Counted from the first letter of the stretch, positions 3,565 through 22,272 are shown. The stretch is 64,000 nt of DNA from Escherichia coli (GCF_048403405.1 NZ_CP183129.1), one strand, 5' to 3'. A program made the numbers and translations. The notes: generated from the sequence alone by a model not told the origin.

Positions 3565-5565
3565 TCATCCTTGTTGCTGAAGCATGGGGAATAATTGTTC
3601 GCAAAGCAAAACACCGTTATTCATTGCTTCTACCCGTGCCTCGCTTTCTGTATTACGAAATTGTGCCAACACATGTGCCAGCCGATAAAAACCGACCGCG
3701 GTGAGGTCATTCGCCAGCAACTCTGCCTGACCAATAGCACTCTGTTCCTGATAGCGCCAGCCGTTATGGAGCAGTTGAATAAGTAACGCCTGGCAGCGCA
3801 TCAGCAACTGATGAGCGGTAGACGGCACAGGCAAAACGCTGGCAGAAGGTAGCGGTGCCACAGGCGCAGTTTCTGCGTCCAGCGCCCAGGCGCGGGTTTT
3901 TGTCATCATCACCCGTGGTTCCAGTGTCAATTGCCCCTCTACAAAGCTGACAAAGCCAGAAACCAGACTCACGGGGTCGTCTGTTTGTTGCAAAAGCGCC
4001 GCCATGCGTTCAACGGCATAAGGCGCGCTGGCTGAGGCTGGCAGTGATAACGTCAGCAGATTATCTTCACCTTCGCCGCTGATTACCTGCGCATCCAGCG
4101 TCTGGCGGCTGCTATCCCAACCGAGCGAAATACACTCAGCGACCGGCAGAATAAATAAGTTATCGACCTGATTAAGAGGCCGTATGCAGGCGGGAGGACG
4201 CTGGCGTAAATATTCCCGCAAAGCCACAATGCCCGGCTGGCGCAATGGCGCGCTCAACATTTGCCAGGCATCAGGCGACAGCGGCACAACGCTGCTTAAG
4301 CGGTTGCGGGTAGCTAACAGCAGCTCGCCATCGGCACTGCGTTTTGCTGCTTGTGAAACAATTTGCCCGCCCGCCAGTGCGCCAGCCTGAAAACTAAACA
4401 GCCGACGCGTAGCTGCCGGTGAGTTTTCCTGTTCACTTCGCGGCCAACTGCGCGAAAGGTGCAAAATACTGCCGGTGTCGGGATCGGTAAACCAGATGCG
4501 TAAACCATAATGCTCAATATCCTGCCAGCAACGCATACCTAAAGACACCAGCCGCAGATGATCAAGCTTTGCTTCTCCGGCAATGCCAGCGCCAACGACC
4601 GTGCGCCACGGCACAGGAGGAACTTCACCAACACTGTCGCGCCGGGTCATCTCTTGTGCGCAATTTAATCGACTGTTTAATGCCGCAAGCTGACGTAAGC
4701 ATTCTCCGGCATAATAGTGGCTGGCGCGGGCGTGGAAGGCATCAACGCTGGCGCGCAGTTGCCGTAGCGATTCACTCACCCATCGCCAGTTGCAGCGTTC
4801 CGCCGCCTGCTGCGCGCGGCTGAAAGCGGCCTCGTAGTGAATAAGCGGCTGGCTGATGCCGCTCAGCCATAATGCCTGGCTTAGTTGTTGAACATATTGA
4901 CGACACGTTTTGCCTTCTTCGCTGGCAAACGGATCGTCAGATGATGTGACGTGTTCGCTGCGCATCTGCCAGATTAAATGAGTCAATTCCGCTTGCTGCG
5001 CTTTTGCCTGGACAAAGGCCTGTACTGCCAGTACGACATGTTCGCAAAGTGTGCCTTCAATACAATCACAGCGTGCGAAGCGAATGCTGCTGCGGGAATA
5101 AAAACGTACATCGCTCATCGGTAAGCGGGCAGAGGGAATTTCGCCCGGCGTACAGAACAACTCAATGGTGATGCCTTTAGCGACCAGTGCCTGTGCGCGT
5201 TTGCGGGTGGCATCGGGCAGGGTAGCCAGTTCTTCCAGCCAGATTGCCGGATCCCACTCTTCTTCTTTTTCCGTAGGCTGGGTGGTGGCGCAAAGTCGCT
5301 GATAACTTAAAACCAGCATCACGCGATGGCGGCACATGCCGCTGGCCCCGCAGCTGCACTGAGCCTCTTTCAGTGCCTGACCGTTCGCCAGCTGGGTGCG
5401 GACACCGTCACTGAAGGTGGCGATTAAAGCGCCGTTCTCATGGCTGATCTCCGGGACGTTGCCATTTTCCAGTTCCTTAAGACTGCGCTTAACAAAACCG
5501 GCATTGCTTAACGCTGTCAGGGGCTGCGGTGTCAGTTCTAATAATTCCGGACGTAGTGAATTCAT
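3565..5565 (-). CDS. yehQ: SWIM zinc-finger protein YehQ
   Basis: ORF 3565..5589; start chosen at the ATG at 5565, which has a GGAGA SD and overlaps the yehP stop (ATGA). Two CxCx5CxH SWIM-like motifs (CSCGASGMCRH, CDCIEGTLCEH). Confidence 0.75.
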   Translation of the reverse strand: MNSLRPELLELTPQPLTALSNAGFVKRSLKELENGNVPEISHENGALIATFSDGVRTQLANGQALKEAQCSCGASGMCRHRVMLVLSYQRLCATTQPTEKEEEWDPAIWLEELATLPDATRKRAQALVAKGITIELFCTPGEIPSARLPMSDVRFYSRSSIRFARCDCIEGTLCEHVVLAVQAFVQAKAQQAELTHLIWQMRSEHVTSSDDPFASEEGKTCRQYVQQLSQALWLSGISQPLIHYEAAFSRAQQAAERCNWRWVSESLRQLRASVDAFHARASHYYAGECLRQLAALNSRLNCAQEMTRRDSVGEVPPVPWRTVVGAGIAGEAKLDHLRLVSLGMRCWQDIEHYGLRIWFTDPDTGSILHLSRSWPRSEQENSPAATRRLFSFQAGALAGGQIVSQAAKRSADGELLLATRNRLSSVVPLSPDAWQMLSAPLRQPGIVALREYLRQRPPACIRPLNQVDNLFILPVAECISLGWDSSRQTLDAQVISGEGEDNLLTLSLPASASAPYAVERMAALLQQTDDPVSLVSGFVSFVEGQLTLEPRVMMTKTRAWALDAETAPVAPLPSASVLPVPSTAHQLLMRCQALLIQLLHNGWRYQEQSAIGQAELLANDLTAVGFYRLAHVLAQFRNTESEARVEAMNNGVLLCEQLFPMLQQQG

Positions 5566-6698
5566 GACTGAAGATTCTCCGCAAGCCATGATGCCAGCTC
5601 GCCCGGTGTCATGGCGGCTATTTGTGCGCCGACATTAACCAGCGCCTGGGCCGTATCGTGGTCATAGCAAGGTGTTGCGGTGCTATCGAGCGCCGCCAGT
5701 CCCAGTACTTTGATGCCGCTCTGGACACACTTTTTCACCTGATGCGTCAGTAATGATGATGAACCCCCTTCATAAAAATCGCTCACGAGGATAATGACGC
5801 TTTTTGCTGTTTGTTCAATAAGTTGCCGACCATACTCTACGGCACTGGCGATATTGGTTCCGCCGCCTAATTGCACTTTCATTAATAACTCTACCGGATC
5901 GGCAACGTCGGCGGTGAGATCGACGACGCTGGTGTCAAACGCCACCAGATGGGTACGAATGCCGGGTAACTGCCATAAACAGGCCGCCATCACCGCAGAG
6001 TGGATCACCGAGTCAACCATCGATCCGCTTTGATCAACCAGTAAGACCAGTTGCCATTGATCGCTATGGCGCTTAATGCGGCTGTTAAAGCGGGGGGATT
6101 CGATATACAACTTGCCGTGTTGCGGATGCCAGTGTTGCAGGTTGGCACGCAGGGTACTTTTGAAATCGAAATTACGCGCCAGTGGAATAAATGAGCGGCG
6201 ACGGCGATCGCGGACACCAGAAAAAGCCTGGCGAACTTCCTTTGCCAGTCGCGCCATAATCTCTTCAACAACCTGGCGCACTATCCGGCGGGCGGCAGCC
6301 AGCACTTCGGGATTCATCAGATGTTTGGTGTGCAAAACGGCGCGTAGCAGGCTTTCAGAAGGCTGCATACGTTCCAGCACGTCGAGATTCGTCACCACAT
6401 CTTCAATGCCGTAGCGCAGTACGGCATCGCTTTCCAGCCGCTCAATCACCCGTTGCGGAAACAGTGTGTGAATACTGTTGATCCACTCAGGGGTGGTGAA
6501 ATTTGAGTCACCTAATCCACCGGAGCGTTCACCACGCTGGAGCCGTTCAGGATCGCGCCCATACAGCCACTCCAGCGCGTGGTCTATCTGCCGGGCGTTG
6601 TCATCCAGCCCACAAAGCGTCGTTTCTGCCGCTTCGCCAAGAATTAATCGCCAGCGTTGTAGCTCACGGGTGGTCAGAAGATCGTTCAGTTCAGACAT
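5562..6698 (-). CDS. yehP: von Willebrand factor A (VWA) domain protein YehP
   Basis: ORF 5562..6926 trimmed to the ATG at 6698 (MSELNDLLTT..., 378 aa). MIDAS-like motif DQSGSM; start overlaps the yehM stop by 8 nt. Confidence 0.85.
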   Translation of the reverse strand: MSELNDLLTTRELQRWRLILGEAAETTLCGLDDNARQIDHALEWLYGRDPERLQRGERSGGLGDSNFTTPEWINSIHTLFPQRVIERLESDAVLRYGIEDVVTNLDVLERMQPSESLLRAVLHTKHLMNPEVLAAARRIVRQVVEEIMARLAKEVRQAFSGVRDRRRRSFIPLARNFDFKSTLRANLQHWHPQHGKLYIESPRFNSRIKRHSDQWQLVLLVDQSGSMVDSVIHSAVMAACLWQLPGIRTHLVAFDTSVVDLTADVADPVELLMKVQLGGGTNIASAVEYGRQLIEQTAKSVIILVSDFYEGGSSSLLTHQVKKCVQSGIKVLGLAALDSTATPCYDHDTAQALVNVGAQIAAMTPGELASWLAENLQS

Positions 6699-8970: not shown

Positions 8971-8980
8971 GCATCTTTCC

Positions 8981-10069
8981 TCACGGCAGGCGGTGGCGAG
9001 CTTGATAATAAGCCTGCCAGTGAGCTTCTTTATGTGTGGCGACGCGCTGTTCGAAGTAACGGCGCAGACGCGCGCGATCTTCTTCGTTATCTTTGACGAT
9101 GGTTCCGGCAATACAGTCCACCAGGTCGGCAGGCTCCCCCGCGCGATTCGCTAAAAACCAGGCGCGGACACCCACAGCATGGGCCACGTTAACGGCTTCA
9201 GCGGTGGACATAATCGCTGTCAGTGTATCCATTGACGTTTTCTTTTCGCCGTTGGCACGCAGATCGCGGAACGTGCGCACCAGTAATTCCAGTACCGCGT
9301 CAGGCACTTTATGCGGAATACCGCTATGGGCCAGCAAACGCGCCGAAGCACTGGCAACCAGTTCCAGCTCCTGGGCGAAATCCATAATCGGAAAGACAGT
9401 TTCAAAATCGAAGCGACGCTTTAGCGCAGCACTCATTTCATTGACGCCGCGATCGCGGGTATTGGCAGTGGCAATAATATTAAAGCCTTCCCGCGCATAG
9501 AGCTGACTGGCTTCACCAGTGAGTTCCGGCACCGTCATTACCCTGTCAGAAAGCATACCTAACAGACAGTCTTGTACTTCCAGCGGTGTACGCGTTATCT
9601 CTTCAAAACGGACGATTTTGCCGTCGCGCATTCCCTGGTAAAGCGGGGCAGGGACCAGCGCTTCCGTTGATGGACCATGATTGATAAGCAGAGCGTAGTT
9701 CCAGCCGTACTTGATTTGATCTTCGGTGGTAGATGCGCCGCCCTGGATGGTTAACCCGGCATCGCCGCTAATAGCGGTTGCCAGTAATTCAGACAGGAGA
9801 GATTTTGCGGTGCCAGGTTCCCCCACCAACATCAAACCGCGCCCGGTGGCAAGAGTGACTAACATACGTTCGACAGCGGAGGGACTAATCACCACTTTAC
9901 GGCTAATATTTTGCGCGCTATCGCCAAGGATAAAAGCACGGGCCGCAGGCAAACTTAACTGCCAACCGGGCGGGCAAGGTGCGTTATCATTTTGTTTTAA
10001 TTTTGCCAGTTCATCGGCGTATAACACAGCAGCAGGCGGACGCTGCAGATGATTATTCTGCGGTGACAT
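8981..10069 (-). CDS. yehL: MoxR-like AAA+ ATPase YehL
   Basis: ORF 8981..10135 trimmed to the ATG at 10069 (MSPQNNHLQ..., 362 aa). Walker A GEPGTAKS; Walker B-like IVRFEE. Confidence 0.85.
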   Translation of the reverse strand: MSPQNNHLQRPPAAVLYADELAKLKQNDNAPCPPGWQLSLPAARAFILGDSAQNISRKVVISPSAVERMLVTLATGRGLMLVGEPGTAKSLLSELLATAISGDAGLTIQGGASTTEDQIKYGWNYALLINHGPSTEALVPAPLYQGMRDGKIVRFEEITRTPLEVQDCLLGMLSDRVMTVPELTGEASQLYAREGFNIIATANTRDRGVNEMSAALKRRFDFETVFPIMDFAQELELVASASARLLAHSGIPHKVPDAVLELLVRTFRDLRANGEKKTSMDTLTAIMSTAEAVNVAHAVGVRAWFLANRAGEPADLVDCIAGTIVKDNEEDRARLRRYFEQRVATHKEAHWQAYYQARHRLP

Positions 10070-10180
10070 ATATTCATCCCTGAAATGTATTAATGAAATA
10101 AACGATATTTTACGCGCAATAAATGTTTGGCGCATTAGTTGTTTGAGCGAAAAATATCTGGAAAGCAGATCACAGTAAAT

Positions 10181-10204
10181 AAAAAAACCTGCTGGTGAGG
10201 CAGG
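10181..10204 (-). terminator. rho-independent terminator of the OrzO-like sRNA
   Basis: Hairpin cctgc-tggtgag-gcagg (10188-10204) flanked on the plus strand by aaaaaaa (10181-10187), i.e. a 7-U tract after the hairpin on the minus strand. Confidence 0.65.
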
Positions 10205-10263
10205 TTCTTTTATTTACTATTTTCAGGCCCAACACCGCAGCCTGTGCAACATCGTGTTCCAAC
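10181..10263 (-). ncRNA. orzO: OrzO-like antisense sRNA (type I antitoxin), divergent from the zorO-like toxin gene
   Basis: Minus-strand promoter TTGCAA (10293-10298), 17-nt spacer, TATAAT (10270-10275); roughly 85-nt transcript ending at the terminator. Its 5' region is the reverse complement (19/20) of a leader segment of the downstream toxin mRNA. Confidence 0.6.
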
Positions 10264-10269
10264 GAACGA

Positions 10270-10320
10270 ATTATAACCATCGGTGGACCCCGTTGCAATT
10301 AAGATAATGAGATTTATAAT
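10270..10320. promoter_or_regulatory. divergent promoters sharing one palindromic -35 hexamer
   Basis: TTGCAA at 10293-10298 is its own reverse complement. A TATAAT lies 16 nt downstream on plus (10315-10320) and another 17 nt downstream on minus (10270-10275). Confidence 0.55.
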
Positions 10321-10409
10321 CCAGACGGTTGGGACGTTGCGCCGGATCGGACCAATTTTAAGTCCTGGCTACCGGACGGGTGGTGCTGCAGGTGGTGCCC
10401 TGATCCGGA

Positions 10410-10429
10410 GTGCAACATCGTGGTCCAAC
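10410..10429 (+). promoter_or_regulatory. predicted sRNA target site in the zorO-like leader
   Basis: gtgcaacatcgtggtccaac is a direct repeat (19/20) of 10244-10263, the region transcribed on the opposite strand as the sRNA 5' end. Confidence 0.55.
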
Positions 10430-10591: not shown

Positions 10592-10612
10592 TGGGCAAAT
10601 TGAAACGCATCT

Positions 10613-11025: not shown

Positions 11026-14000
11026 TTAATGGAAAATGACGTCGGGTGCGCTTAACGCTTCACTCAAATCAAACACATCAAGTTCGGCAAAAGTGACAGA
11101 TTTATTGTCACGGTATACATGAAGAGAACGGAAGCTCATTAGCGCTTTGCTATCAACATTGTAGTGGTTAAAACCGGATGAAAACTTAAGGACCAGCCGG
11201 TACTCGCCCAGGTCATAGACAAATGCATTCTCATAGCCTGACTCCCAGCCTTTGTATCGCATTCCCATAAGTTGCCCAACGGTAGCAGATTTACCTTCCC
11301 AGCGATTCAAACTATTACTGGCTGACTCGTCAGGCGTGAGCAGTACTGTGCGCCGTGCCAATTGGCGAAAAGGCGGCATAATTTCGTAATCGGCAAAAAG
11401 CTGTGCAAACTCACTGCGCATTTCTGCTGCCATTTCTAACGGGTGGGCAATGCCAATCAGAGCATCGGCAGGCAGGTCAATTGGCTCATCTTGCTCATTG
11501 CAGAACTCCCCCTCAGCGGCCACACGAAAGGCGTTGAGTAAACGACGCGGTTCATTTGCCGGATAAACACCCCATATTAATCGCTGAGTAACCAGACGGG
11601 TAAAGGGATGATTAACAAACAGAGAATGAAAATCTGCCAGCGACCAGCGTCGGGTGGTGCGCAGGGCAGTTTCAAGACGCGGGAGCAGGTTTTTGCTCAC
11701 CTGAGTGGCATCTTTTTTTAGCCCTTTTAGTCGGGCCAGTGCCTCGGGTGCTTTCAGTTGATCGTCATCGGCGCGCAACCGGGGAACGCTTTTCTGGCGA
11801 ACGTTTTGCTGATCAAAGATAACCGGGTTAAGGTTTTCATCGAAGCGAACGGTAAATTGCCGTGGACCAAAATCAAAAATCAACGCCTGCGGATCATCAA
11901 GACCCAGTGTTGGGACTAATCTGTCCGCTAACTGTTCCTGGCTTAGCCCTCGATTTTCTGCGACCACCTGAAGAAATTCCGCCGCGTTATCACGTAAGGG
12001 GCGGGATTTCGCCCGTTGCGATATATGATGCAGCTGTATCAGTGCCATATCATTATTCATCTGAGTAAGTATGTTCAGGCCGCTGACGGCACGGGCAGAT
12101 TTGCCTTCCTGTGGCCAGGCAAGGATCTGTGTCGTCAGATCCCGTGCCGTGCTTTCGTCGCCAAAGAGACTTAACGCCAGAAATGCCCAGTTGTCTTTTG
12201 CGGGAGCACCAGCTTGTTGCCACGCGGTGAAAAGATCCCAGGCAAAAGCTGCCAGCGTTTGCGGCTGGCAGAAAGTTTTCAGTTGTTCCAGTCCGCTATA
12301 AAAACGTCCGCCCTGGGTAAAGCGCAGCATTTCGCCGATAATTTCCAGTGCGTCATCGGTAACAGGCTGATTATTCGTGATAAGGCGCGGCCTGGACCAC
12401 ATTGCCGGCTGCCAGAAATCAGGGGCTTTTGGAATGCGTGTCGGGTAAATCTCTATTGGACTCTGTTTAAGTAAATGCTCCAGGGCAGGCCATACATCTG
12501 TACGCTGCCAGCGGTTTGCCGCGGTTTGCAGCAATTCACCATGTCCCTGTTCGTAAAGTAAACGTAGGGCAAGTAATGCAGCTTCGCTATTATCGCTGGA
12601 TTTGGTGAAGACAAGAGGGATAAGTGCAGTAGCCGTATGTTCCGGCCATTGTAAAATCCACTGGCGAGCCAGATCACGCTGCGCCGCGAAACGTCGCCAG
12701 ACGCGGGCAACGGGCAGGGCCAGTTCTGTTGCGCCAAAATTTAAAATTAACGGAAATGTTTCTTTTGGACGATATGAAAAAGCCAACAGCAGACCTGGTA
12801 GAGCATCCAATCCGAAGATACTGAGAAAATAGTCCTCACCCGCGAACAGATGCTTTTTCTCATTGATACGTAGCCAGAAAGTCAAAGCCATCTCACGCGG
12901 CAACTGTGCCAATAAATACAGGTTCCAGATACTCTTTTCCCGACGATAGCGTGAGTAGCTGTCATTTTCCCATATGTTAATTAACACTTCTACGTGACCG
13001 CTGCGAAGCGCCTGTTCTGCTAATTGTGCTTCCGGGGAGTTCCAGCCATTCAGGATCTCTTCAACCCGCCCCTGGTAGTAATGCCACTGAACAATGAGTG
13101 AATTGCGTGCAGCATCCAGTTTTCCGGGGAGTATATAATTCAGAAACAGCCATACATCATCTCCAAAACCCAGCTCCTGTAGTACAACTCGTCCACTTTT
13201 ATGTTCCATGCGTTCCGCAAGAGATTCCGTGCTGAAATAACGGGCAGACTCAGTGGCGGCAAGCCTCTCTCGTTCGCCTGGTTGCCAGTAAACTTGCGGC
13301 GTTAATTCGAACGGTGCCAAATCAAGACGTGGAACTGTCATTTTTTTCTTACTACGCCACGGTGGTGAAACGAGGATTTCAGGCATTTGGCTGTTATCGG
13401 TGCTATCAATAACCGTTTTAGGCGGTGCCGATAAATAACTATTCAGCACTGACCGGGCTTGAGTACTTAACCACGGCATCACCTCTTCTGCCAGTTGTGG
13501 CTGCGATGCCATCAGCGTTTGTAACAGCGTACGCCAGTATTCATCACGTGCTTTTTGCTGTGCAGGCAGCTTTTTGTCTTCGATGATTGGATAACCAGGG
13601 CGCGTAGGTGGTTCTTTTAGCGCCAGCAGTTCTGCCAGTGCGGCAAGCGTCGCATGGGGGAAATTTTTACTGTATTTAGCTACACGTTGCAGGCTGGGTT
13701 TGTTTTTATCAGCAACTAACAGCAGGGTGCGGATGACCTGCGGATGGTTAATTTGTACCAGCAGACTGCCGCAATCTTCTTTATGGGCATACATTGCCAG
13801 GCGTGGAACGGCTGCCAGTCCTTGTTCGCGCAAAAGGGCAGCGCAGGCCGCGTAGCCGAAGTGGTTTTCATGCGACATGTAGCTGGCTTCCCGATCGCTA
13901 AATATATCCTGGCTCCAGTAGCGTTCGAGTTTTCTCACCGCTCTGGGGTCAATAGCAACAACTTTTAACCACTCCTTAGAATGAAAATGAGTCCACGGGC

Positions 14001-14658
14001 ATTCAAGGCTTACCAACTCATTGGCGATTTCTGGTTTTTCCGGGAGGATCAGAGCAATAAAAGGGCGGCGAACTTTGGTTATTCCTGGCAGTGCGGCAAT
14101 GAGTTTGTCGGCGCAACGCTGCCAGCTGCTTTCCTCTGCCAGAGAGAGATGCTTACGCAGTCGGAGATCGAATTCGTTATAGGTTTCTGATCGATAACCA
14201 TAGCCATAATCCTCGTTCTGATACTGCAATGTCACTAGCAGAGGATCACTTTCATAACATCGTGTAATAAACTGGCGTGCAATCACCACCTCAGTCGCAT
14301 ATTCCAGTCCCTCTTGTTGGACGATTTCGTCGAGCAACTGTTGGCTATCATTTTGCGCGATACAGGCTAGCGCCGCCATTGTCCGGGCCGGAACTGAGGG
14401 TTTGTGTTCGCCAATCAAGTTGATGGCCTGCGTAATGGCCGACTGCCACTCCAGTGAAAAATTTTCATAACGCCAGACAATGTTTTTTTTCTTCTCAGCT
14501 TTTTGTAGCAATTCATCACCCAGTGTCTGGATGAGGCTTTCAGTGATAACAGGCACCGGTTCGCCCGGCCAACTGCGATGGCTGAGCGGCGTTTTGCCTT
14601 TTTTATATTTCAGTTCCACTTGGGCGTTATCCGCCAGCCACGGTAATTCCTTGTCCAT
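11026..14658 (-). CDS. yehI: DUF4132-family giant protein YehI (1210 aa)
   Basis: Full ORF from the track. C-terminal region shares motifs with the two upstream paralogs (DFGPRQFTV, HPLEM..FAQLFADYEIMPPFRQL); no N-terminal WGR domain. Confidence 0.85.
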   Translation of the reverse strand: MDKELPWLADNAQVELKYKKGKTPLSHRSWPGEPVPVITESLIQTLGDELLQKAEKKKNIVWRYENFSLEWQSAITQAINLIGEHKPSVPARTMAALACIAQNDSQQLLDEIVQQEGLEYATEVVIARQFITRCYESDPLLVTLQYQNEDYGYGYRSETYNEFDLRLRKHLSLAEESSWQRCADKLIAALPGITKVRRPFIALILPEKPEIANELVSLECPWTHFHSKEWLKVVAIDPRAVRKLERYWSQDIFSDREASYMSHENHFGYAACAALLREQGLAAVPRLAMYAHKEDCGSLLVQINHPQVIRTLLLVADKNKPSLQRVAKYSKNFPHATLAALAELLALKEPPTRPGYPIIEDKKLPAQQKARDEYWRTLLQTLMASQPQLAEEVMPWLSTQARSVLNSYLSAPPKTVIDSTDNSQMPEILVSPPWRSKKKMTVPRLDLAPFELTPQVYWQPGERERLAATESARYFSTESLAERMEHKSGRVVLQELGFGDDVWLFLNYILPGKLDAARNSLIVQWHYYQGRVEEILNGWNSPEAQLAEQALRSGHVEVLINIWENDSYSRYRREKSIWNLYLLAQLPREMALTFWLRINEKKHLFAGEDYFLSIFGLDALPGLLLAFSYRPKETFPLILNFGATELALPVARVWRRFAAQRDLARQWILQWPEHTATALIPLVFTKSSDNSEAALLALRLLYEQGHGELLQTAANRWQRTDVWPALEHLLKQSPIEIYPTRIPKAPDFWQPAMWSRPRLITNNQPVTDDALEIIGEMLRFTQGGRFYSGLEQLKTFCQPQTLAAFAWDLFTAWQQAGAPAKDNWAFLALSLFGDESTARDLTTQILAWPQEGKSARAVSGLNILTQMNNDMALIQLHHISQRAKSRPLRDNAAEFLQVVAENRGLSQEQLADRLVPTLGLDDPQALIFDFGPRQFTVRFDENLNPVIFDQQNVRQKSVPRLRADDDQLKAPEALARLKGLKKDATQVSKNLLPRLETALRTTRRWSLADFHSLFVNHPFTRLVTQRLIWGVYPANEPRRLLNAFRVAAEGEFCNEQDEPIDLPADALIGIAHPLEMAAEMRSEFAQLFADYEIMPPFRQLARRTVLLTPDESASNSLNRWEGKSATVGQLMGMRYKGWESGYENAFVYDLGEYRLVLKFSSGFNHYNVDSKALMSFRSLHVYRDNKSVTFAELDVFDLSEALSAPDVIFH

Positions 14659-14667
14659 GCTCTTTCC

Positions 14668-17600
14668 TTATTCAAACAGGGCTTCAATATCGTTAATGAG
14701 TTCGCTGGCGGTGATGTCGTCGAGCACGGAGAACTGCGCTTCCTGAGTTGAATTACTCCCCCAGCCATAGCTTTCCGCTTTGCCTTCCCATAGCCACAGC
14801 TTGCTTAAGACCTGCTCAGCGCTAAGATCGGCTGGTGACATACCCACCGCAAAACCTTCGTCGATTTCCATGATTAACGACCAGCGACCGAGAGGTTTGA
14901 TCATCCATCCGATCCAGCCTCCATCCTGTGGTTCGCCCTTTATCCAGCCTTTATTTGCCAGCCCCATGACCCGGCCGCTCGGGCATTTTCTGCCTGCCCA
15001 GCGGGTCAGTTCGCTGGCGTTGCGCTCGGCTTCTGTCAGGGCGTAACTGTTACGTTCAAGCTGACGGAACGGTGGTAGCAGTTCGTAGTCGGCAAAAAGC
15101 TGACCAAAGGCGACAGCATCCGTCGGTGATATTTCCAGAACGTGAGGAATGCCAACAGAGATATCGCCTTCCTGCAAGGTGAAAAGATCATCGTCAGCGG
15201 TGCTGTAGCTGTTATCTTCCGCCACCCTAAAGCACGCCTGTAGCTGGTTTTCGGCGCTATAAACGCCCCAAATCAGACGGCGGGTTAAGTGACGAACCAG
15301 CGGATGCTCAACCAGGAAGAGCTGAAAGTTTTCCGGCGACCAGCGGCGGCGCAGGCACATGGCGGATTCCAGCCTTGCTACCTGCTGGGCGGCGACGGTA
15401 CGCGCATCTTTTTTCAGCAATTTGTAGCGGTTAACAGCATCGTTTGCCTGTGATTCATCATCGCTTTTATTGGGTTTAGGTAAGTCTTTCAGGCGGCTGC
15501 CGGAAACATCGCGCACAAACGGTTTTAAGGTTTCATCAAAGCTGACGGTGAACTGCCGTGGGCCAAAATCCAGCAGCAGCGAACCGTTATCATCCAGACC
15601 GAGAGCCGGTGCTAACCGATCTTCAAGCTCCGCTACCGTCAGTTCGCGACTTTCGGCAATGTCGGCAATTTTCTCTTTCGCCCGCTCCTGTAATGCTTTG
15701 AATTTCAGTTTCTGGGCAATGCCGTTAAGCTGCATCAGGGCGATATCACTACTGATAGCGGCGAGGATATCCAGCCCGACGGTGGCGCGTTTATGCTGGG
15801 ATTCACCAGGCCAGGCGCGTATTAATGGCGTCAGTTTGCGGGCGGTGTCATCGTTACCGAGAACGCCTAACGCAGTGAACGCCCAACTCTCTTTCGACGG
15901 CGCGCCAGCGGTCTGCCAGGCGGTAAACAGATCCCAGGCAAATTCAGCCAGTGAGTCGGCGGTACAGGCATCTTTCACCTGCAATAATCCCGGATACAGC
16001 GCCTCCTCCTGATGGAAGCGGAGCATTTCACCGAGGTGCTGGAGTGCGCTATCGGGCAGTGATTGGGCATTTGCTTTTAATACCGGGCGGGTCCAGATCG
16101 ATGGCTGATAAAAGGCCGGAAGAGTGGGGATTTTTGTCGGGTGATTATCTAAGGGATCGAGCGCAAGCATAGCGTTCACCGCATCTGTTACTTCCGGCTG
16201 GTTATAACGCCGGGCGATTTCTTGCAGTAATGGTTGATGACCGTTTTCGGTAAGCATACGCAATGCAGCGCGGGCGTTATCCTGTGCTTCACCGGCTTTG
16301 CCGAGCGCCGCAGACAGCAGGCCGGTAATGGCGTGTTCCGGGTATTTCAGCAGCCAGGTGCGGGCGTCTTGTCGTAGGGTTTTGAGTTTGTTGAAGGCGC
16401 GGGCGACGGCAGGTGCCAGCTCACTCGCTGCGAAGTAATTCGTTATGGGCAAGGCTTCCTGTGGATAGCGTGCAAGTGAGTTTACTAACCCAGGTAATCC
16501 TTTGAGTCCAAAATGTAACATGGCGTATTCGGTATCGGTATGCGGAGATAGAGTAAGGGCATTCCATGCTCTTACTGCTTTCTCCAGCGGCAATGTTGTC
16601 AAAATCCCCAAATGCCAATAATGCCCGGTAGGTGAATGAAACACCTTAAATTCACTTATTAAAGTTGAATAATCTTCATTTAGCCATGCCTCAACTACCG
16701 CTTCGGGAGCTTTAATATATGTACCAGCGATCCGTCGTTGAAAACCCATCCTTGCCAACAGATTGGCAGTACTTTCTTCATGACTAACCGTGATGTGTTT
16801 TGAATACCAGATATATTTCGCCAAAAGTTGATTACTGATTTCTTCTGTCAGATAACTGATTGGCTCAATACCTAATGGTGCTAAATCAAGCACTGGAATC
16901 GGCGATTTTTTCTTTTTCGAAAGCCATGGTGGGGAGACTACTATGGCCGGCAGTAGATCGGCGCTGGCATGGTTTGAGGGCTGTGTCAGTTGTTGCTGGC
17001 ATGATTTCAGCACTGCAACTGCGGGTGTCGAAAGCCAGGGAATGACCTGTTCTGCTAGTGTCGGTTGCGAGATAAGCATCGTCATTAGCATAATGCGCCA
17101 ACTATTCTCTTCTTTTTGCACTAGAAGTTCCGCCAGTGCTGCCAGTGCTGCGTGTGGGAACGCAGCGCAGGCTTTCGTCATTCGATCGTGACAGCGTTTA
17201 GTATGCCCTGCTACACGTATAAGCAGTGTTAATGCGAACGGATGATTGATATGACGCAACACATCGGCGCAGTAGTCACTTGCGACATAGGGAGCAAATC
17301 GGGGCAGGGCCGCAACACCTTGCTCCTGTAATACGGTGGCTGACCATATCGCACCACAATAGTAATCATCAAAAATGGCATATGGCTCGTGATATTTTTC
17401 TAATGAGGCAAGAATGTGCTCATCAGTCGCCACTATTTTTAGCCACTCCAGCGAGGGTAATTTCTTTTGCCCCAGTAGACGCTGGGCAATTTCATGTGCA
17501 ATTTCTGGTTTTTCGGGCAATAACAAAGCAATTAATGGTTGCCGCCATTCTGGAATATGTGGAACTGCGGCAATAAGTTTTTGTGCACATTTTTGCCAGA

Positions 17601-18462
17601 GAGACTCTTCCGCCAGTGATAAATGTTTACGTAGGCGTAATTCAAAGCTGGAATATTGCTGCAAATAATCAGGTGAAATGCCAGACGACAGGAAAACAAT
17701 ATTATTGTTGACATAATCCCATTCAATAGATATTTGTTGAAGATGTATTATTACATCAGTAGCATATTCCAGACCGCCTTCCTGAATAATCTGATCCATA
17801 ACATCCGCACGCTCTTTATATCTCGTGCAGTGCAGTTCAAGTGCCGCGAGTACAGCCATTACCGGTGATGGTAATTTTGTCGTTTTCGGGCTGTTAATCA
17901 GATCGATCGCCTGAGCGATGAAGTTTTGCCACTCTAAAGTACAGGCGCTGAAGTCAAATGTAGCTGTTTTGTTATCCCGTTGCGACACGCCACAGGCTAA
18001 GCGACGTAACTGGGTTAATTTATCTACAGGTGTAACAGGATCTCCGGGAAAGCGGCGATGGCTTAAGGTGGTGGGTACGACTTCAAGCGGAAAAACGACA
18101 GCAATATCTTTTGCCAGCCACGGTAAAATAACGTCTGTATTTTTGTCAGCCACGTAGAATTCTGGTGTAACTGAGGGCTGTTCCTGAATGATGGTAGAAA
18201 AGTCAGATAATTCGAGAGATTTCGTTACCGTTCGAGTATGTTTCGATGTAGCATTCTCCGCATGTTCCACATACCCCTTTTTCGTTTTCTCCGCAATCAG
18301 CTTGAGTTCCGCTTTTTCCGCCGCCGCAGCATCTGCAAAGCTTTTTACCTGACTTTGCCCGTTGGTGCCGACTTTGCCCCAACTGATATTCAGTTCGTTT
18401 CCCTGCTGCTCCACCGCCCAGAATTTATGTGATTTTTCGTCCTGATAAATATAGGTTTTCAT
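14668..18462 (-). CDS. MolR-like giant protein, N-terminal WGR domain plus DUF4132 (1264 aa)
   Basis: N-terminus MKTYIYQDEKSHKFWAVEQQGNELNISWGKVGTNGQ (WGR signature); C-terminal DUF4132-like region; 9-nt gap to yehI. Confidence 0.85.
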   Translation of the reverse strand: MKTYIYQDEKSHKFWAVEQQGNELNISWGKVGTNGQSQVKSFADAAAAEKAELKLIAEKTKKGYVEHAENATSKHTRTVTKSLELSDFSTIIQEQPSVTPEFYVADKNTDVILPWLAKDIAVVFPLEVVPTTLSHRRFPGDPVTPVDKLTQLRRLACGVSQRDNKTATFDFSACTLEWQNFIAQAIDLINSPKTTKLPSPVMAVLAALELHCTRYKERADVMDQIIQEGGLEYATDVIIHLQQISIEWDYVNNNIVFLSSGISPDYLQQYSSFELRLRKHLSLAEESLWQKCAQKLIAAVPHIPEWRQPLIALLLPEKPEIAHEIAQRLLGQKKLPSLEWLKIVATDEHILASLEKYHEPYAIFDDYYCGAIWSATVLQEQGVAALPRFAPYVASDYCADVLRHINHPFALTLLIRVAGHTKRCHDRMTKACAAFPHAALAALAELLVQKEENSWRIMLMTMLISQPTLAEQVIPWLSTPAVAVLKSCQQQLTQPSNHASADLLPAIVVSPPWLSKKKKSPIPVLDLAPLGIEPISYLTEEISNQLLAKYIWYSKHITVSHEESTANLLARMGFQRRIAGTYIKAPEAVVEAWLNEDYSTLISEFKVFHSPTGHYWHLGILTTLPLEKAVRAWNALTLSPHTDTEYAMLHFGLKGLPGLVNSLARYPQEALPITNYFAASELAPAVARAFNKLKTLRQDARTWLLKYPEHAITGLLSAALGKAGEAQDNARAALRMLTENGHQPLLQEIARRYNQPEVTDAVNAMLALDPLDNHPTKIPTLPAFYQPSIWTRPVLKANAQSLPDSALQHLGEMLRFHQEEALYPGLLQVKDACTADSLAEFAWDLFTAWQTAGAPSKESWAFTALGVLGNDDTARKLTPLIRAWPGESQHKRATVGLDILAAISSDIALMQLNGIAQKLKFKALQERAKEKIADIAESRELTVAELEDRLAPALGLDDNGSLLLDFGPRQFTVSFDETLKPFVRDVSGSRLKDLPKPNKSDDESQANDAVNRYKLLKKDARTVAAQQVARLESAMCLRRRWSPENFQLFLVEHPLVRHLTRRLIWGVYSAENQLQACFRVAEDNSYSTADDDLFTLQEGDISVGIPHVLEISPTDAVAFGQLFADYELLPPFRQLERNSYALTEAERNASELTRWAGRKCPSGRVMGLANKGWIKGEPQDGGWIGWMIKPLGRWSLIMEIDEGFAVGMSPADLSAEQVLSKLWLWEGKAESYGWGSNSTQEAQFSVLDDITASELINDIEALFE

Positions 18463-18474
18463 TGCAAAGTCCTT

Positions 18475-21400
18475 TTAATCAAAAAGTGATTCGATGTCGT
18501 TAATGAGTTCGCTGGCGGTGATGGCATCAAGCGCGGAGAACGTGAGCGAGGGCTGTGTACTGTAGCGTTCCCCTGGTGAAGTGATTTTTACGCTTTCAAC
18601 AGGTAGCAGGTCGCTATACCCCGTTTCGCCATAAATTAATGAAAAATGTTCTGTTTCAAGTTCGAGAGCGCCATAAGGGGTAGATTTGCGCATCGCATAG
18701 ACGCTGCCGCTTTCTTCCAGACGTTGCCAGCCTCGACGTTCCAGCCCGACAATGCGCCCGGCCTGGCAAAGACGTCCTTGCCAGCGTATCAATTCATGGG
18801 TATCACGTTCATTATCAGTAAGGTGGTAATAACCACGATCGAGTTGGCGAAAGGGAGGAAGCTTTTCGTAATCAGCATAAATTTGCCCAAATGCAGTGGC
18901 GGATTCAGGAGATATTTCCAGCACATGCGGTATACCGATGTTTCCTGCTGGCAGCGTGAATAACTCATCCTGCGCATCGCTGTAAGTGCTGTCTTCTGCG
19001 ACCCGGAAGCAGGCGATCAGCGTGTTTTCCTCAGTATATACCCCCCATAACACCCGTCGGGTTAAGTGACGTACCAGCGGATGCTCCACCAGAAACAGGC
19101 GGAACTGCTCTGCCGTCCAGCGTCTGCGCTGGCACATATCCTGCTCCAGACGATCAATCTGCTGGCTGGCAATGGCGTGCACATCTTTCTTCAATTGTTT
19201 GAAGAGGTTAACGGAGTCAGTTGCCAGTGTTTGATCATCGCTCTGATTTGGTTTGGGTAAATCTTTCAGGACTTTGCCGTTTGCATCGTGCACTACAGGT
19301 TTTAAGGTTTCGTCAAAACCAACGGTGAATTGACGTGGGCCGAAATCCAGTATCAGCGAGCCACTGTTATCAAGCCCTAAATCTGGAGCCAGGCGGTCTT
19401 CCAGTTCAGCCATAGTCAGCCCACGGTTTTCAGCAACTATGTTGATTTTCTCGCGGGCATGTTCCTGTAATGCTTTGAATTTAATTTTTCGCGCGATGCC
19501 ATTAAGCAGCATTAGCGCAACATCGCTGCCAATATCAGCTAATACATCCAGCCCGTAAACCGCGCGTTTATGCTGGGATTCACCCGGCCAGGCACGGATA
19601 AGCGGGGTTAATTTACGTGCGGTGTCGTCATTGCCTAAAATCCCAAGCGAAGTAAATGCCCAGTTTTCTTTTGCGGGTGCGCCAGCTTCTGTCCATGCCG
19701 TGTAGAGATCCCAGCCAAAGTCAGCCAGTGATTCGTGGGTGAAGGTCTCTTTGATGGTCGCCAGCCCAGCGTAGGAGGTAATGTCGCGTGGAAAGCTCAA
19801 CATTGTGCCCAGGTGGCGCATAGCGTCATCTGGCAGAGGCAGGTTGTTACTTTTAAGCCGTGGTCTGCGCCATAAGGTGAACTGATAAAAGCCGGGCAGT
19901 GGGGCGATTTTAGCGGGATATTCTTCCAGCGGATCGCTATCGAACAATGTTGCCAGCGCAGCTAAAACATCAGGTTGGTTGTATCTCCGGCCGATTTCTT
20001 CAATCGTTTCTCGCTGGTTTAATTTCACTAGCAGGCGGAATGCCTGGCGGGCATATTCCCGATTTTGGCACGGTTTGCCCAGCGCCAAAGGCAGTAGCCC
20101 GGCGGCGGCATGGCGCGGGTTATTTGCCAGCCAATTAATGGCATCCTTGTAAGCCATTTTTTTCTGTAATCGCTGCGCCATTGGTAAGGCTAGTTCACTG
20201 GCCCCAATAAAGAGGGTGAATATCCACAGTCGTTGATGATCTCGTTGCAAGCAGGTCATAAACGCAGGAATGGCCGTACTACCAAAAACTGCCAGAATCT
20301 CTTTCTCACCTGAATATCGCTCCTCAATGATTATTTGGTTGAGAAATGAAATCGCCTGTTGTCCCGGTAAGTAACAAAGCGCAGATAGATTCCAGCTTTT
20401 GTTGGCATTGTTGTGATATTTCGCAAACTCAGCTTTTAGTGCTGGAAAATCAAAGCGCAACAAGGCATCAACAGCGCTTTGCGGTATATATTTTTTTTCA
20501 TGTAAGTCATCTTCGCAATGCAGCCATTCATTAAAACCTAATTGCCAAAGGATTTGTTGTTCTGGTGTAAAAGGAATGAAAGATGTCTCCCAGCTTTCTT
20601 TTTCAATTAGTGGCAGGTCGGTAAATAAGGTTTGCTGTGATGACTGATATTGCGCGATTTCACTGAATCTGGATATGTCAGTATGACTGATTAACTCTGT
20701 AATTCCTGGCGTGATGTCAGTGACTGCAGGGATGGGAAGCACCGGTAAATCAAATACGGGTATTACATTCGTTTTCTTATTTATTACCCACGGTGGAGCG
20801 ACAAACAGCTCCGGCAACATATCCGCAGTGGCGTATTCACATTCTTCAGCGACTAACTGAGTACGACATTCAGATAAGATGCCTGCCGCTTTAGCATTAA
20901 CCCAGGGAATGACGTCAGTGACTAAATCTGGCGTGGCGGTAATCAGTTTGACAAGCGCTTTACGCCACTGTGCATCTTCATGTATTGCCAGTAAAGTTGC
21001 ATAAGCGGCAAGAGCCGCAGCGGGATGTTTTTGACAGGCTTTGCTTAAGTATTCCAGGTGCTTTTTCTTGCCAATTACACCGAGGATCAGAATTTGAATC
21101 GCATCCGGGTGATTCGTTTTCCATAGCCATTTGACAAGATCTTCAGTCTCGCTGATGCGCTCGAAGAGATAAGTGGGATTGTCAGAATGCTCTTCCGTAA
21201 ACTCAAGAAGTATCCGGCTTACACCGCGCACCCCATTATTTGCCAGCAACATTGCCAGATAAGCGCGAAAATCATGATACAACGGTGGGAAGTCGTATTT
21301 TTCTGCTGTAGTCAGAGCGGCGTCATCGGTTACCACCAGTCTTAACCAGGTCATCGCCGGAACGTTTTGATCTGCATAACGTAGCGCCATAGCATTGGCA

Positions 21401-22272
21401 ATATCCGGGCGTTCAGGGAGCAGTAACGCCGCAAAAGGTTGCCGTGCTGGGGATAGCGAGGGAATAGCAGCGAGAACTTTATCTACACAGCGTTGCCACT
21501 CATCTTCTGAAGCGAGTGAAAGATGATGACATAGACGTTGATGCCAGTTCGGTAGTGATTCTGCTTTGAGATCAGGGGGAATAATGGTGGTGACGTCGGC
21601 TTTTACTGGTTTATATTTGAGTTGAAGAGCGAGAAGGGCGATTTCAACGGTAGTTTCCAGACCACAGCGAATGACTAAGTCATCGACCAGTTCATCTGTA
21701 GAGTAAGAGTTCCATAAATTCCAGAGCAATGCCGCATCAGATTGTATACTTCCTGTTTGTTGATTATTCAGAATTCGCCTTTGTAACTCGGCAAACGCCA
21801 GCTGCCAGTTTTCAGGATAAGAGCGGTAATTATTGTCGGGGTCATATGCCCTGGTGTTATTCGCGATGCGCTTCCATATTTGGCCATCTTTGTACAGATA
21901 ATTGATCTCTCTGGGGCGAGAGCGATGAGGAAAAGCAAATCGATTAATATCGCCAGTTACCGGAATGACTGCATCATCAGCCACCCATGGGCGTTTGTTT
22001 TTACTCTCAGGGGAGGTTTCAACTTCAGGAGTGGCTTTGGTGATGGGGGGGATATGCACGTTTGCTAAAGCATTTTCCACATAGCCTTTTTTCGTTTTCT
22101 CTGCGATCAGCTTAAGCTCCGCTTTTGCCGCTGCCGCAGCATCCGCAAAACTTTTTACCTGGTTTTGCCCTTTGGTGCCAACTTTTCCCCAACAGATATG
22201 CAACTCGTTTCCCTGTTGCTCCACCGCCCAGAATTTATGTGATTTTTCGTCCTGAAAGATAAAGTGCCTCAT
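18475..22272 (-). CDS. MolR-like giant protein, N-terminal WGR domain plus DUF4132 (1265 aa), second paralog
   Basis: N-terminus MRHFIFQDEKSHKFWAVEQQGNELHICWGKVGTKGQ, near-identical to the adjacent paralog over about 60 aa; conserved C-terminal block; 12-nt gap to the next gene. Confidence 0.85.
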   Translation of the reverse strand: MRHFIFQDEKSHKFWAVEQQGNELHICWGKVGTKGQNQVKSFADAAAAAKAELKLIAEKTKKGYVENALANVHIPPITKATPEVETSPESKNKRPWVADDAVIPVTGDINRFAFPHRSRPREINYLYKDGQIWKRIANNTRAYDPDNNYRSYPENWQLAFAELQRRILNNQQTGSIQSDAALLWNLWNSYSTDELVDDLVIRCGLETTVEIALLALQLKYKPVKADVTTIIPPDLKAESLPNWHQRLCHHLSLASEDEWQRCVDKVLAAIPSLSPARQPFAALLLPERPDIANAMALRYADQNVPAMTWLRLVVTDDAALTTAEKYDFPPLYHDFRAYLAMLLANNGVRGVSRILLEFTEEHSDNPTYLFERISETEDLVKWLWKTNHPDAIQILILGVIGKKKHLEYLSKACQKHPAAALAAYATLLAIHEDAQWRKALVKLITATPDLVTDVIPWVNAKAAGILSECRTQLVAEECEYATADMLPELFVAPPWVINKKTNVIPVFDLPVLPIPAVTDITPGITELISHTDISRFSEIAQYQSSQQTLFTDLPLIEKESWETSFIPFTPEQQILWQLGFNEWLHCEDDLHEKKYIPQSAVDALLRFDFPALKAEFAKYHNNANKSWNLSALCYLPGQQAISFLNQIIIEERYSGEKEILAVFGSTAIPAFMTCLQRDHQRLWIFTLFIGASELALPMAQRLQKKMAYKDAINWLANNPRHAAAGLLPLALGKPCQNREYARQAFRLLVKLNQRETIEEIGRRYNQPDVLAALATLFDSDPLEEYPAKIAPLPGFYQFTLWRRPRLKSNNLPLPDDAMRHLGTMLSFPRDITSYAGLATIKETFTHESLADFGWDLYTAWTEAGAPAKENWAFTSLGILGNDDTARKLTPLIRAWPGESQHKRAVYGLDVLADIGSDVALMLLNGIARKIKFKALQEHAREKINIVAENRGLTMAELEDRLAPDLGLDNSGSLILDFGPRQFTVGFDETLKPVVHDANGKVLKDLPKPNQSDDQTLATDSVNLFKQLKKDVHAIASQQIDRLEQDMCQRRRWTAEQFRLFLVEHPLVRHLTRRVLWGVYTEENTLIACFRVAEDSTYSDAQDELFTLPAGNIGIPHVLEISPESATAFGQIYADYEKLPPFRQLDRGYYHLTDNERDTHELIRWQGRLCQAGRIVGLERRGWQRLEESGSVYAMRKSTPYGALELETEHFSLIYGETGYSDLLPVESVKITSPGERYSTQPSLTFSALDAITASELINDIESLFD

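Follow-up and report, generated by a model that had tools for sequence, protein, structure and literature searches.

The block of minus-strand genes between positions 3565 and 22272 of the window, a 64,000-nucleotide stretch of Escherichia coli chromosome (NZ_CP183129.1) with 100% identity to strain TUM1226, encodes five protein families, YehL, YehM, YehP, YehQ and the DUF4132 giants, that travel together as a self-contained module. These families very probably constitute one functional system, and we favor, with a probability of about 0.55, the reading that the block derives from a single ancestral system of several proteins, which later acquired, in Escherichia alone, an insertion of yehK and zorO/orzO. 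A ∼19 kb region that is near-core in E. coli and has counterparts in hundreds of species would then be a five-family machine, and eight separate 'y-genes' become one defined and testable system, with a core, an exchangeable giant subunit and two architectural variants.

By open reading frames and annotation there are eight protein genes in the block rather than the nine counted in the initial annotation, although it correctly placed all of them on the minus strand. Two WGR-DUF4132 giants, paralogue 1 (18475–22272; 1265 aa, both an ORF and annotated) and paralogue 2 (14668–18462; 1264 aa), are followed by yehI (11026–14658), which encodes a third giant paralogue of 1210 aa that has DUF4132 without WGR, and by yehK (10645–10965), a 106 aa orphan. 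Beyond these lie yehL (8981–10069), coding for a MoxR-type AAA+ ATPase (AAA_5), yehM (6691–8970), for a 759 aa DUF5682 protein, yehP (5562–6698), for a VWA protein of the CoxE type with its MIDAS intact, and yehQ (3565–5565), for a 666 aa SWIM zinc-finger protein. The last four genes abut or overlap, the yehP start overlapping the yehM stop by 8 nt and the yehQ start overlapping the yehP stop by 4 nt. The domain assignments proposed earlier (AAA_5, VWA_CoxE, SWIM and WGR plus DUF4132) hold in Pfam, with the SWIM match borderline; the signature gene of the system is yehM (DUF5682), which had not been identified as such.

A scan for YehM (DUF5682) matched 328 species, and the best 80 loci, those closest to E. 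coli YehM, were recovered from the Gamma-, Beta- and Deltaproteobacteria/Myxococcota and the Actinobacteria; 58 of them extend 4.5 kb or more to either side. Co-occurrence of the giants with the MoxR-VWA-SWIM genes outside Escherichia was the test named in the initial annotation, and DUF4132 giants adjoin AAA_5-DUF5682-VWA-SWIM genes in 56 of these 58 loci, a frequency (97%) that applies to the E. coli-like variant only, the loci being the best YehM matches. Such consistent co-occurrence clearly runs against independence of the two modules, and thus supports their functional linkage. All five families are present in 55 of the well-flanked loci, with one giant in 36, two in 17 and three in 2. 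Different lineages have unrelated genes on either side of the system, the genomic context differs in Serratia and Variovorax, and a generic ABC ATPase is the only other family that appears repeatedly around the 80 loci. The distance from the giant stop to the yehL start has a median of 92 nt (65 loci); Escherichia is an outlier at 1.1–1.6 kb, and its wide gap is a derived state. The same five genes are found on a Bacillus mycoides plasmid, and in a plasmid collection DUF5682 adjoins the DUF4132 match in ∼23 of 28 records.

These observations bear on the simplest alternative, that the giants and yehLMPQ are unrelated and came to be neighbors in E. coli by chance. In E. coli the two halves are indeed parted by yehK, a toxin-antitoxin locus and a terminator, and their reported regulators are not the same. 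However, the adjacency recurs in four phylum-level groups with unrelated flanks and on the Bacillus plasmid, and outside Escherichia the spacing is tight; nor is the pattern readily attributed to a single recently transferred element, as YehM identity between groups is 36–48%. We consider coincidence very improbable. The partnership of giant and core is nonetheless not obligate in either direction, since more distant DUF5682 operons occur without DUF4132, and stand-alone DUF4132 giants exist. In a second arrangement, variant B, a DUF5691/HEAT protein takes the place of the giant while the AAA, DUF5682, VWA and SWIM components are retained, and the variant-B SWIM proteins also carry a CxCxnCxH motif. 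Both variants are present in tandem in one genome.

YehL has the AAA_5 domain by Pfam, and among 83 homologues conservation of its Walker A motif (GEPGTAKS, residues 83–90), of Walker B residues E156/E157 and of R218/R219 is 97% or higher. The best solved sequence relative is midasin/Rea1, whose AAA modules match at 3e-10, with MoxR 2r44 (6.5e-4) also among the closest and McrB a further solved relative. In midasin, which acts on pre-60S ribosomes, AAA_5 modules and a MIDAS domain work together to remove factors from a large assembly; midasin is a single eukaryotic polypeptide of 4700–4900 residues, whereas the parts are split in the yeh system. The VWA partner of YehL is encoded two genes downstream, and 84 of 87 loci have a YehP homologue. 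YehP matches both VWA_CoxE and VWA_2 in Pfam, and weakly a cobaltochelatase-subunit model (1.3e-3), and conservation of its MIDAS residues (D222-x-S224-x-S226 plus D307) is 97% or higher across 85 homologues. The ATPase and MIDAS motifs of YehL and YehP are intact.

YehQ contains a SWIM motif (∼5302–5400; Pfam i-E 9.7e-4, borderline) and a second weak copy, and the signature C70-x-C72-x5-C78-x-H80 is invariant in 47 homologues. Searches recovered no solved sequence relative for either YehQ or YehM. In a structure model, the YehM N-terminal domain (∼8251–8970) has a TraB/ChaN/TIKI/EreA-type fold, with the haem-binding protein ChaN among the top matches and HopBA1-type proteins also represented, and is followed by a ∼500 aa helical-repeat tail. 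This tail, the location in a MoxR-VWA operon and the lack of a Pfam match to TraB or to the other TraB/PrgY/TIKI/ChaN/erythromycin-esterase families set YehM apart from these proteins. Alignment of homologues shows R10, H11, E35, E83, D101, E143, R175 and H202 to be invariant. Fusions of DUF5682 with VWA (YehM-YehP) fall into five to six independent clusters, and for one of these the operon context was observed.

An intact-Walker AAA_5 protein and a MIDAS VWA protein in the same operon are what the yeh system shares with the MoxR/VWA pairs RavA-ViaA, CbbQ-CbbO, NorQ-NorD and CoxD-CoxE. YehL is itself the type member of an uncharacterized MoxR 'YehL subfamily', which was named by Snider and Houry in 2006, as related in PMC3893208. 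The yeh system differs from these pairs in having three further, obligate-looking partners (DUF5682, the SWIM protein, and the giants or DUF5691/HEAT) and no linked client enzyme gene. Class I chelatases (CobN-CobS-CobT and BchH-BchI-BchD) provide a further parallel in their AAA+ motor, VWA/MIDAS subunit and large subunit, although the yeh system has additional SWIM and TraB-fold partners and several interchangeable giants. In these enzymes a small AAA+ motor and a VWA/MIDAS subunit act with a substrate-holding subunit of ∼1200–1300 aa. Membership of this class was considered and rejected, the giants being alpha-solenoids without similarity to CobN or BchH.

These likenesses raise the question of whether the system is a housekeeping chaperone for enzyme maturation or cofactor insertion, like CoxD-CoxE, NorQ-NorD, CbbQ-CbbO or the CobNST/BchHID enzymes, in which the giants would hold the substrate and the TraB/ChaN-fold domain would bind a metal, haem or another ligand. 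The CoxE-type VWA domain of YehP and its cobaltochelatase match, the ChaN similarity of YehM, and the combination of a 1200–1300 aa subunit with AAA+ and VWA proteins, which mirrors the chelatases, all point in this direction. Those MoxR-VWA pairs cited in PMC3893208 that have been studied by experiment serve in maturation in a chaperone-like way, and papers citing Lee et al. (1990) trace the name molR, borne by one of the giants, to a molybdate-utilization phenotype. On the other hand, no client enzyme gene is conserved beside the module, a maturation factor would not usually vary in number, diverge fast and be lost often, as the giants do, and molR is reported to be disrupted in K-12 (PMC3950696). 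On balance we regard a maturation role as improbable; if it were correct, the seventh MoxR subfamily would at last have an assigned role.

The giants share an architecture which in the models consists of a WGR domain, an alpha-solenoid and a conserved alpha/beta C-terminal domain. In giant 2, Pfam places WGR at 18217–18462 and DUF4132 at 14944–15501, within the alpha/beta C-terminal domain, and the AF2 model of residues 85–1264 has a pLDDT of 88.9 and a pTM of 0.80. Its WGR domain matches PDB 2ra8_A at 1.6e-18 and that of PARP3 weakly, while residues 2–75 of giant 1 (∼22048–22272) match a WGR-containing NCBIfam model at 2.3e-16. Measured against solved proteins and Pfam PF05406, giants 1 and 2 have WGR and YehI does not; it is likewise absent from 19 of 83 homologues. 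The two WGR giants thus resemble PARP-type and bacterial WGR proteins such as 2ra8 in their N-terminal ∼80 aa, but differ from PARPs in lacking a PARP catalytic domain, and structure searches returned only generic HEAT/ARM-type solenoids and no enzyme fold. Giants 1 and 2 are 43% identical overall, with 77% identity in WGR, 20–40% in the middle and 60–75% in the C-terminal ∼400 aa; YehI is 38% identical to giant 2 and 31% to giant 1, in alignments that begin past WGR. The ends of the giants (WGR and the C-terminus) are constant, and the middle and the number of copies are variable.

The same contrast between giants and core is evident within the species. Counting a gene as present when at least 80% of it is covered, we found giant 1 in 1629 of 5426 E. 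coli genomes (30%) and giant 2 in 4010 (74%), the latter with a bimodal distribution of identity. By comparison yehI is present in 5222 (96%), mostly at 90–95% identity, and yehLMPQ are likewise near-core, in 96%. Where present, the giants mostly show 90–95% identity, against 95–99% for yehLMPQ and metG, and the WGR giants are the variable and more divergent part of the system in E. coli.

A set of expanded, number-variable and fast-diverging giants around a constant ATPase core is also what could be expected of an anti-phage or anti-plasmid conflict system, with the giants as sensors, the MoxR-VWA pair as an ATP-dependent threshold and YehM, or some unrecognized activity, as effector. The patchy distribution and apparent horizontal spread over four phyla, plasmids included, are consistent with such a role, as are the reported H-NS silencing and SOS/LexA control, the K-12 disruption of molR, a transposon within the DUF4132 region in ST131, and stand-alone giants that adjoin Wadjet and toxin genes and occur on Rhodococcus plasmids. 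A thresholding function in conflict systems has moreover been proposed for MoxR-vWA couples (PMC7159879), and the MoxR-vWA-VMAP ternary systems described there resemble the yeh system in joining such a couple to conserved partners and a diversifying component. However, none of the five yeh proteins has a recognizable effector domain, toxic or otherwise, and judged by Pfam, where the block contains only AAA_5, DUF5682, VWA, SWIM, WGR and DUF4132, and by the silence of PMC7159879, which does not mention SWIM, WGR, DUF4132 or Yeh, there is no VMAP third component. Furthermore, none of the eight proteins matched a family in PADLOC-DB 2.0 at E ≤ 0.01, the 80 loci have no recurrent defense genes in their flanks, phages essentially lack the system, and the near-core status of yehLMPQ and yehI at a fixed syntenic site in E. 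coli is unlike typical accessory defense islands. A conflict role is in our estimation rather unlikely.

Returning to the ancestral five-family system, we tentatively propose a mechanism in which a MoxR-VWA motor acts on a YehM/YehQ complex and the giants confer specificity. The YehL ring would use ATP, with the MIDAS domain of YehP as adaptor, as in other MoxR-VWA pairs, and the pair would act on a YehM- and YehQ-based complex, either remodeling or gating it. The giants may be interchangeable specificity subunits, either sensor or client, that dock through the conserved DUF4132 C-terminal domain and display a variable solenoid surface, usually with WGR. The YehM pocket is likely to be the output (as a hydrolase) or a ligand-binding step, because its conserved His/Glu/Asp/Arg residues form the only candidate catalytic site. 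If the system is a sensor-effector device of this kind, it would represent a new class of MoxR-VWA-gated system. Our literature search found no paper on the signature families DUF5682 and DUF5691, and among the papers inspected none reports a function for DUF4132, the yeh genes or the 'YehL subfamily'.

What such a machine might respond to is suggested mainly by its regulation. A LexA-box-like site, CTGGATAAAATTACAG, lies on the minus strand at 22282–22297 (CTGT-N8-ACAG, one mismatch), upstream of giant 1, and stops 9 nt short of its ATG. The same site occurs at -30/-31 in loci of Escherichia and Klebsiella grimontii but in none of 68 other upstream regions, and SOS control thus appears to be lineage-specific. 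The molR gene is listed in the LexA regulon among genes with a known SOS box (PMC6590174), its promoter is reported to be under BglJ-RcsB/LexA control (PMC3950696), and the yehL upstream region to be bound by H-NS (PMC3686432). Because the giants are reported to be controlled by LexA and BglJ-RcsB and yehLMPQ to be silenced by H-NS, DNA damage or foreign DNA is the trigger that we would guess first. The WGR domains of the giants may bind nucleic acid, by analogy with PARPs and with the description of 'MolR-like TFs' (PMC7824862). For nucleic-acid sensing or remodeling, as the initial annotation had speculated, there are hints in the reputation of WGR and SWIM domains, the LexA box, the molR listing and the control of DUF4132 and WGR genes by DdrO in Deinococcus (PMC8533742), but nucleic acid as the input is doubtful. 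Also unlikely is the fuller version, an undescribed ATP-driven surveillance machine in which the giants sense damaged or foreign nucleic acid, YehL and YehP switch on a YehM hydrolase, and YehQ serves as a SWIM adaptor; were it correct, nearly all E. coli and at least four phyla would possess a previously unrecognized system of immunity or of response to DNA damage.

In E. coli the giants and yehLMPQ look like separate transcription units, since the OrzO terminator lies between the two halves and the regulators reported for them differ. The terminators had been described as confined to the block edges and the toxin-antitoxin locus, and this is roughly correct in that strong hairpins followed by T-runs occur at three such places on the minus strand: after metG at the upstream edge (22380–22403; a 10 bp stem with 6 GC pairs), at the intrinsic terminator of OrzO (10186–10206), and after yehQ at the downstream edge (3470–3486). 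Terminator-like sites in all number 31, which is at chance level (24.4 ± 4.8). The type I toxin-antitoxin locus is real, although it is not the only interruption, as yehK lies inside the block too. Family searches gave no match for yehK, and its homologues are present in 7 of 87 loci, all Escherichia; it belongs to the Escherichia-specific interruption and lies outside the conserved system. The zorO/orzO locus between yehI and yehL has been described previously (PMC2887945), and here the OrzO antitoxin sRNA (10181–10256, minus strand; Rfam RF02083, 101.3 bits against a gathering score of 60) and the zorO toxin ORF, MDTLTQKLTVLIAVLELLVALLRLIDLLK (10502–10591), lie between yehI/yehK and yehL. 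The toxin ORF encodes a hydrophobic peptide of 29 aa and is on the plus strand, opposite to the rest of the block. Related loci contain zero, one or two copies of OrzO.

The block at 3565-22272 is chromosomal, as judged by sequence comparison: 20 kb of the window is 100% identical to E. coli strain TUM1226, and by annotation the window extends from btsSR and yehS/yehR to metG and apbC. Eight protein genes are annotated in the block, all on the minus strand: yehQ, yehP, yehM, yehL, yehK, yehI and two genes encoding proteins of ~1265 residues, referred to here as giant 2 (14668..18462) and giant 1 (18475..22272). The initial annotation described a co-directional block of nine genes interrupted by a type I toxin-antitoxin locus; the shared orientation and the interruption are borne out, while the gene count is reduced by one. 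The yehLMPQ genes are closely packed, separated by 10 nt at one junction and overlapping by 8 and 4 nt at the other two, and only 9–12 nt separate the three giants, the third being YehI (11026..14658, minus strand). Strong hairpins followed by T-tracts are present at 22403-22380 after metG, at 10206-10186 at OrzO and at 3486-3470 after yehQ, although terminator-like matches in total (31) are at the level expected by chance (24.4±4.8). GC content is uneven over 3000-22300, being ~55% in yehLMPQ, 45–55% in the giants, with the lowest values in their variable middles, and 44% in yehK and the toxin-antitoxin locus.

A profile scan with YehM of ~100,000 species genomes found relatives in at least 328 species, a minimum count since the scan is pattern-dependent. 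The best 80 loci were fetched and annotated with HMMs derived from the E. coli proteins plus their first matches; they derive from Enterobacterales, Lysobacterales, Burkholderiales and other Betaproteobacteria, Myxococcota/Deltaproteobacteria, and Actinomycetota (Lentzea, Catenulispora and a Propionibacteriaceae MAG). Among the 58 loci in which the yehLMPQ core is flanked by 4.5 kb or more on both sides, a DUF4132 giant adjoins the core in 56, and all five families (AAA_5, DUF5682, VWA, SWIM and DUF4132) are present in 55. The two modules are thus found together outside Escherichia, and this conserved adjacency supports the functional linkage that the initial annotation had raised as speculation; the coincidental neighbourhood that it offered as an equal alternative is effectively excluded by the same pattern across lineages. 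As a rule the giant lies upstream of the core in the same orientation, although in Burkholderia it follows yehQ; 36 loci have one giant, 17 have two and two have three, and a WGR domain is present in 64 of 83 full-length giants. Flanking genes differ among lineages and are mutually unrelated, and no sixth conserved family recurs in the flanks of the fetched loci apart from a promiscuous generic ABC ATPase, so the module is self-contained.

The interruption in the window is the zorO/orzO locus, recognized by an Rfam match to the OrzO antitoxin RNA (10181-10256, minus strand; 101 bits against a gathering score of 60) and a 29-codon zorO open reading frame (10502-10591, plus strand). It lies between yehK and yehL, and corresponds to the locus described between yehI and yehL, which is reported to be missing in MG1655 (PMC2887945). 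The adjacent yehK (10645-10965, minus strand; annotated, 106 aa) has no match in family searches including PADLOC and NCBIfam, and its homologues among the annotated relative loci are confined to Escherichia; it appears to be an orphan particular to the genus that came in with or beside the toxin-antitoxin insertion. OrzO copy number between yehK and yehL is one in the window and in the relative loci L003 and L009, two in L002, L004 and L008 (E. whittamii), and zero in Klebsiella. The distance from the giant stop codon to the yehL start has a median of 92 nt over 65 loci, and the 1.1–1.6 kb in Escherichia is among the widest outliers. Taken together, these observations identify yehK and the toxin-antitoxin locus as an Escherichia-specific insertion into what was ancestrally an uninterrupted operon.

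Among records of the plasmid collection, YehM matches 38 and the DUF4132 C-terminal region 28, and in ~23 of the latter the two matches are a few kb apart. These paired records come from E. coli, Iodobacter, six Streptomyces, Sinorhizobium, Nonomuraea, Agrobacterium/Allorhizobium, Proteus and Bacillus mycoides, the last with the gene row DUF4132–AAA–DUF5682–VWA–SWIM. Several E. coli and Proteus records of 4–5 Mb filed as plasmids (e.g. NZ_CP134663.1, 4.9 Mb) appear to be mislabelled chromosomes, which would explain the ~220 'plasmid' places recorded in the E. coli genome collection for metG and other chromosomal genes. Stand-alone DUF4132 giants occur in Embleya, Chondrinema and two Rhodococcus plasmids. 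We note that neither Rhodococcus giant has an ATPase core nearby; that of pUSK13_1 (locus L089) is beside Wadjet JetABCD, a GIY-YIG nuclease and a zeta toxin, and that of the R. pyridinivorans plasmid (locus L096) is beside a RES-domain toxin.

A second architecture, variant B, is seen in Rhizobium and Deinococcus as SWIM(460 aa)–DUF5691–AAA–DUF5682–VWA, with DUF5682 at ~26% identity and no DUF4132. In GCA_022841245.1 (locus L094, 3227-23468) it stands in tandem with the DUF4132-containing variant A; the variant A copy has DUF5682 and VWA fused in one 1180-aa protein, and the protein at the DUF5691 position of the variant B copy matches HEAT_2. A gene with a DNA_ligase_A_C domain lies three genes upstream. 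DUF5682–VWA fusions recur in five or six independent 50%-identity clusters. The SWIM signature is common to both variants. The general plan is therefore a solenoid partner with AAA_5, DUF5682, VWA and SWIM proteins, in which the solenoid partner is exchangeable. Comparison of DUF5691 with the YehQ and giant profiles by hhalign gave no relation, in what is a weak test with a single-sequence template.

YehL is an AAA_5 (MoxR-type) ATPase by Pfam, with the Walker A motif GEPGTAKS, the Walker B EE and the arginines kept across 83 homologues; among solved structures it is closest to midasin AAA modules, a MoxR protein and McrB. It gives its name to one of seven MoxR subfamilies, for which the literature searched reports no function. 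YehP belongs to the CoxE-type VWA proteins and its MIDAS motif is intact; its gene (5562-6698) is named 36 times in the FSscan paper, which deals with predicted sites of +1 ribosomal frameshifting in E. coli (PMC2790909). Close to the N-terminus of YehQ lies a SWIM finger whose CxCx5CxH signature is invariant. YehM, a DUF5682 member with an N-domain followed by a helical-repeat tail, has eight residues that do not vary among 112 homologues, whose identity falls as low as 28% (R10, H11, E35, E83, D101, E143, R175 and H202), and judged by this conservation they are the sole candidate catalytic or ligand pocket of the system. PDB sequence searches with YehM (profile), YehP, and YehQ (single sequence and profile) gave no relative, and an NCBIfam scan of the block proteins returned only generic partial AAA, VWA and WGR matches.

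The three giants are paralogues. Giants 1 and 2 begin with a WGR domain, absent from YehI, that matches PDB 2ra8 (1.6e-18) and, weakly, PARP3. Identity between giants 1 and 2 is 77% in the WGR, 20–40% in the middle and 60–75% in the last ~400 residues, and nearly all invariant columns of 69 giant homologues are in the C-terminal half; a homologue search with the giant was filled with E. coli alleles and yielded no distant members. Structure prediction for giant 2 (residues 85–1264, pLDDT 88.9) gives a model in which a long alpha-solenoid leads into an alpha/beta domain containing Pfam DUF4132. Given the paralogue comparison, the C-terminal conservation and this predicted fold, the giants look like scaffolds or sensors rather than enzymes. 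Fold searches with the model gave generic helical repeats only, and no enzyme or CobN/BchH-like fold. This bears on a maturation or chelatase-like role, the third-ranked of three possibilities for the system: the layout of giant, AAA+ and VWA proteins resembles CobNST/BchHID, but the giants have no homology to these systems and the module has no linked client gene.

If the characterised MoxR-VWA pairs are a guide, a YehL ring acting with YehP as its MIDAS adaptor would remodel or gate a YehM–YehQ–giant assembly. The giants would dock through the conserved DUF4132 domain, specificity may come from their variable solenoid and WGR, and the YehM pocket could be an output or ligand site. The five families are co-inherited, the ATPase and MIDAS motifs are intact, and there are YehM–YehP fusions and overlapping genes; the giants have constant ends, a variable middle and variable number. 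The AAA+/VWA core is of the MoxR family (YehL subfamily), and relative to the libraries searched this is a MoxR-VWA system with unprecedented partners. Systems described in PADLOC and in the MoxR-vWA conflict paper, which contains none of the relevant terms, do not match its DUF5682/SWIM/DUF4132 or DUF5691/HEAT partners; the combination of a TraB/TIKI-fold DUF5682 with SWIM and DUF4132 giants, or a DUF5691/HEAT partner, has no described counterpart there. Literature searches found nothing on DUF5682 or on DUF5691 with SWIM, VWA and AAA, and no functional report on DUF4132 among the papers found.

Across 5426 E. coli genomes (presence defined as at least 80% coverage), yehLMPQ is present in 5202, usually at 95–99% identity, much as the neighbouring control metG (5424; 95–99%). 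YehI is present in 5222, mostly at 90–95%, giant 2 in 4010 with a bimodal distribution (313 records at ≥99%, 4964 at 90–95%), and giant 1 in just 1629 (3443 records at 90–95%, 1583 at 80–90%). The motor half is therefore conserved while the giants diverge faster, and the WGR giants are often missing or truncated. In K-12 one giant, molR, is reported to be disrupted (PMC3950696), and in an ST131 sublineage a blaCTX-M-15 transposon lies within the DUF4132 region (PMC9334617). A variable sensor on a constant motor, patchy spread and silencing would suit a conflict system, the second-ranked possibility; the module is, however, near-core in E. coli, lacks an effector domain, has no PADLOC match for any of the eight proteins and is nearly absent from the phage collection (for YehM a single metagenomic contig, itself doubtful, and for the giant no match).

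Ranked first is the possibility that the trigger is DNA damage or foreign nucleic acid, on the basis of WGR, SWIM, LexA and DdrO. A LexA-box-like site, CTGGATAAAATTACAG (22282-22297), ends 9 nt upstream of the giant 1 ATG; Escherichia and Klebsiella grimontii loci share both the site and its offset, and molR appears in a published list of genes with known SOS boxes (PMC6590174). In Deinococcus, one DUF4132 gene and one WGR gene are under strong DdrO control (PMC8533742). The LexA box is absent from 68 of 76 giant upstream regions (background 0.005 per 260 nt) and is not conserved outside enterics, so SOS control is not a general property of the system. From this distribution and the published reports, DNA-damage control is probable for enterics and echoed in Deinococcus, albeit not universal.

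Deletion of molR_1 together with lepA gives synthetic slow growth (PMC4245954); because molR_1 abuts metG (intergenic region 22273-22412), one might speculate that this is a polar effect on methionyl-tRNA synthetase instead of a role of the giant. The molR promoter is activated by BglJ-RcsB and is not repressed by H-NS (PMC3950696). In hns/stpA mutants yehL and yehM are up, and H-NS occupies the intergenic region upstream (PMC3686432); the AT-rich yehK–yehL spacer fits this published binding.
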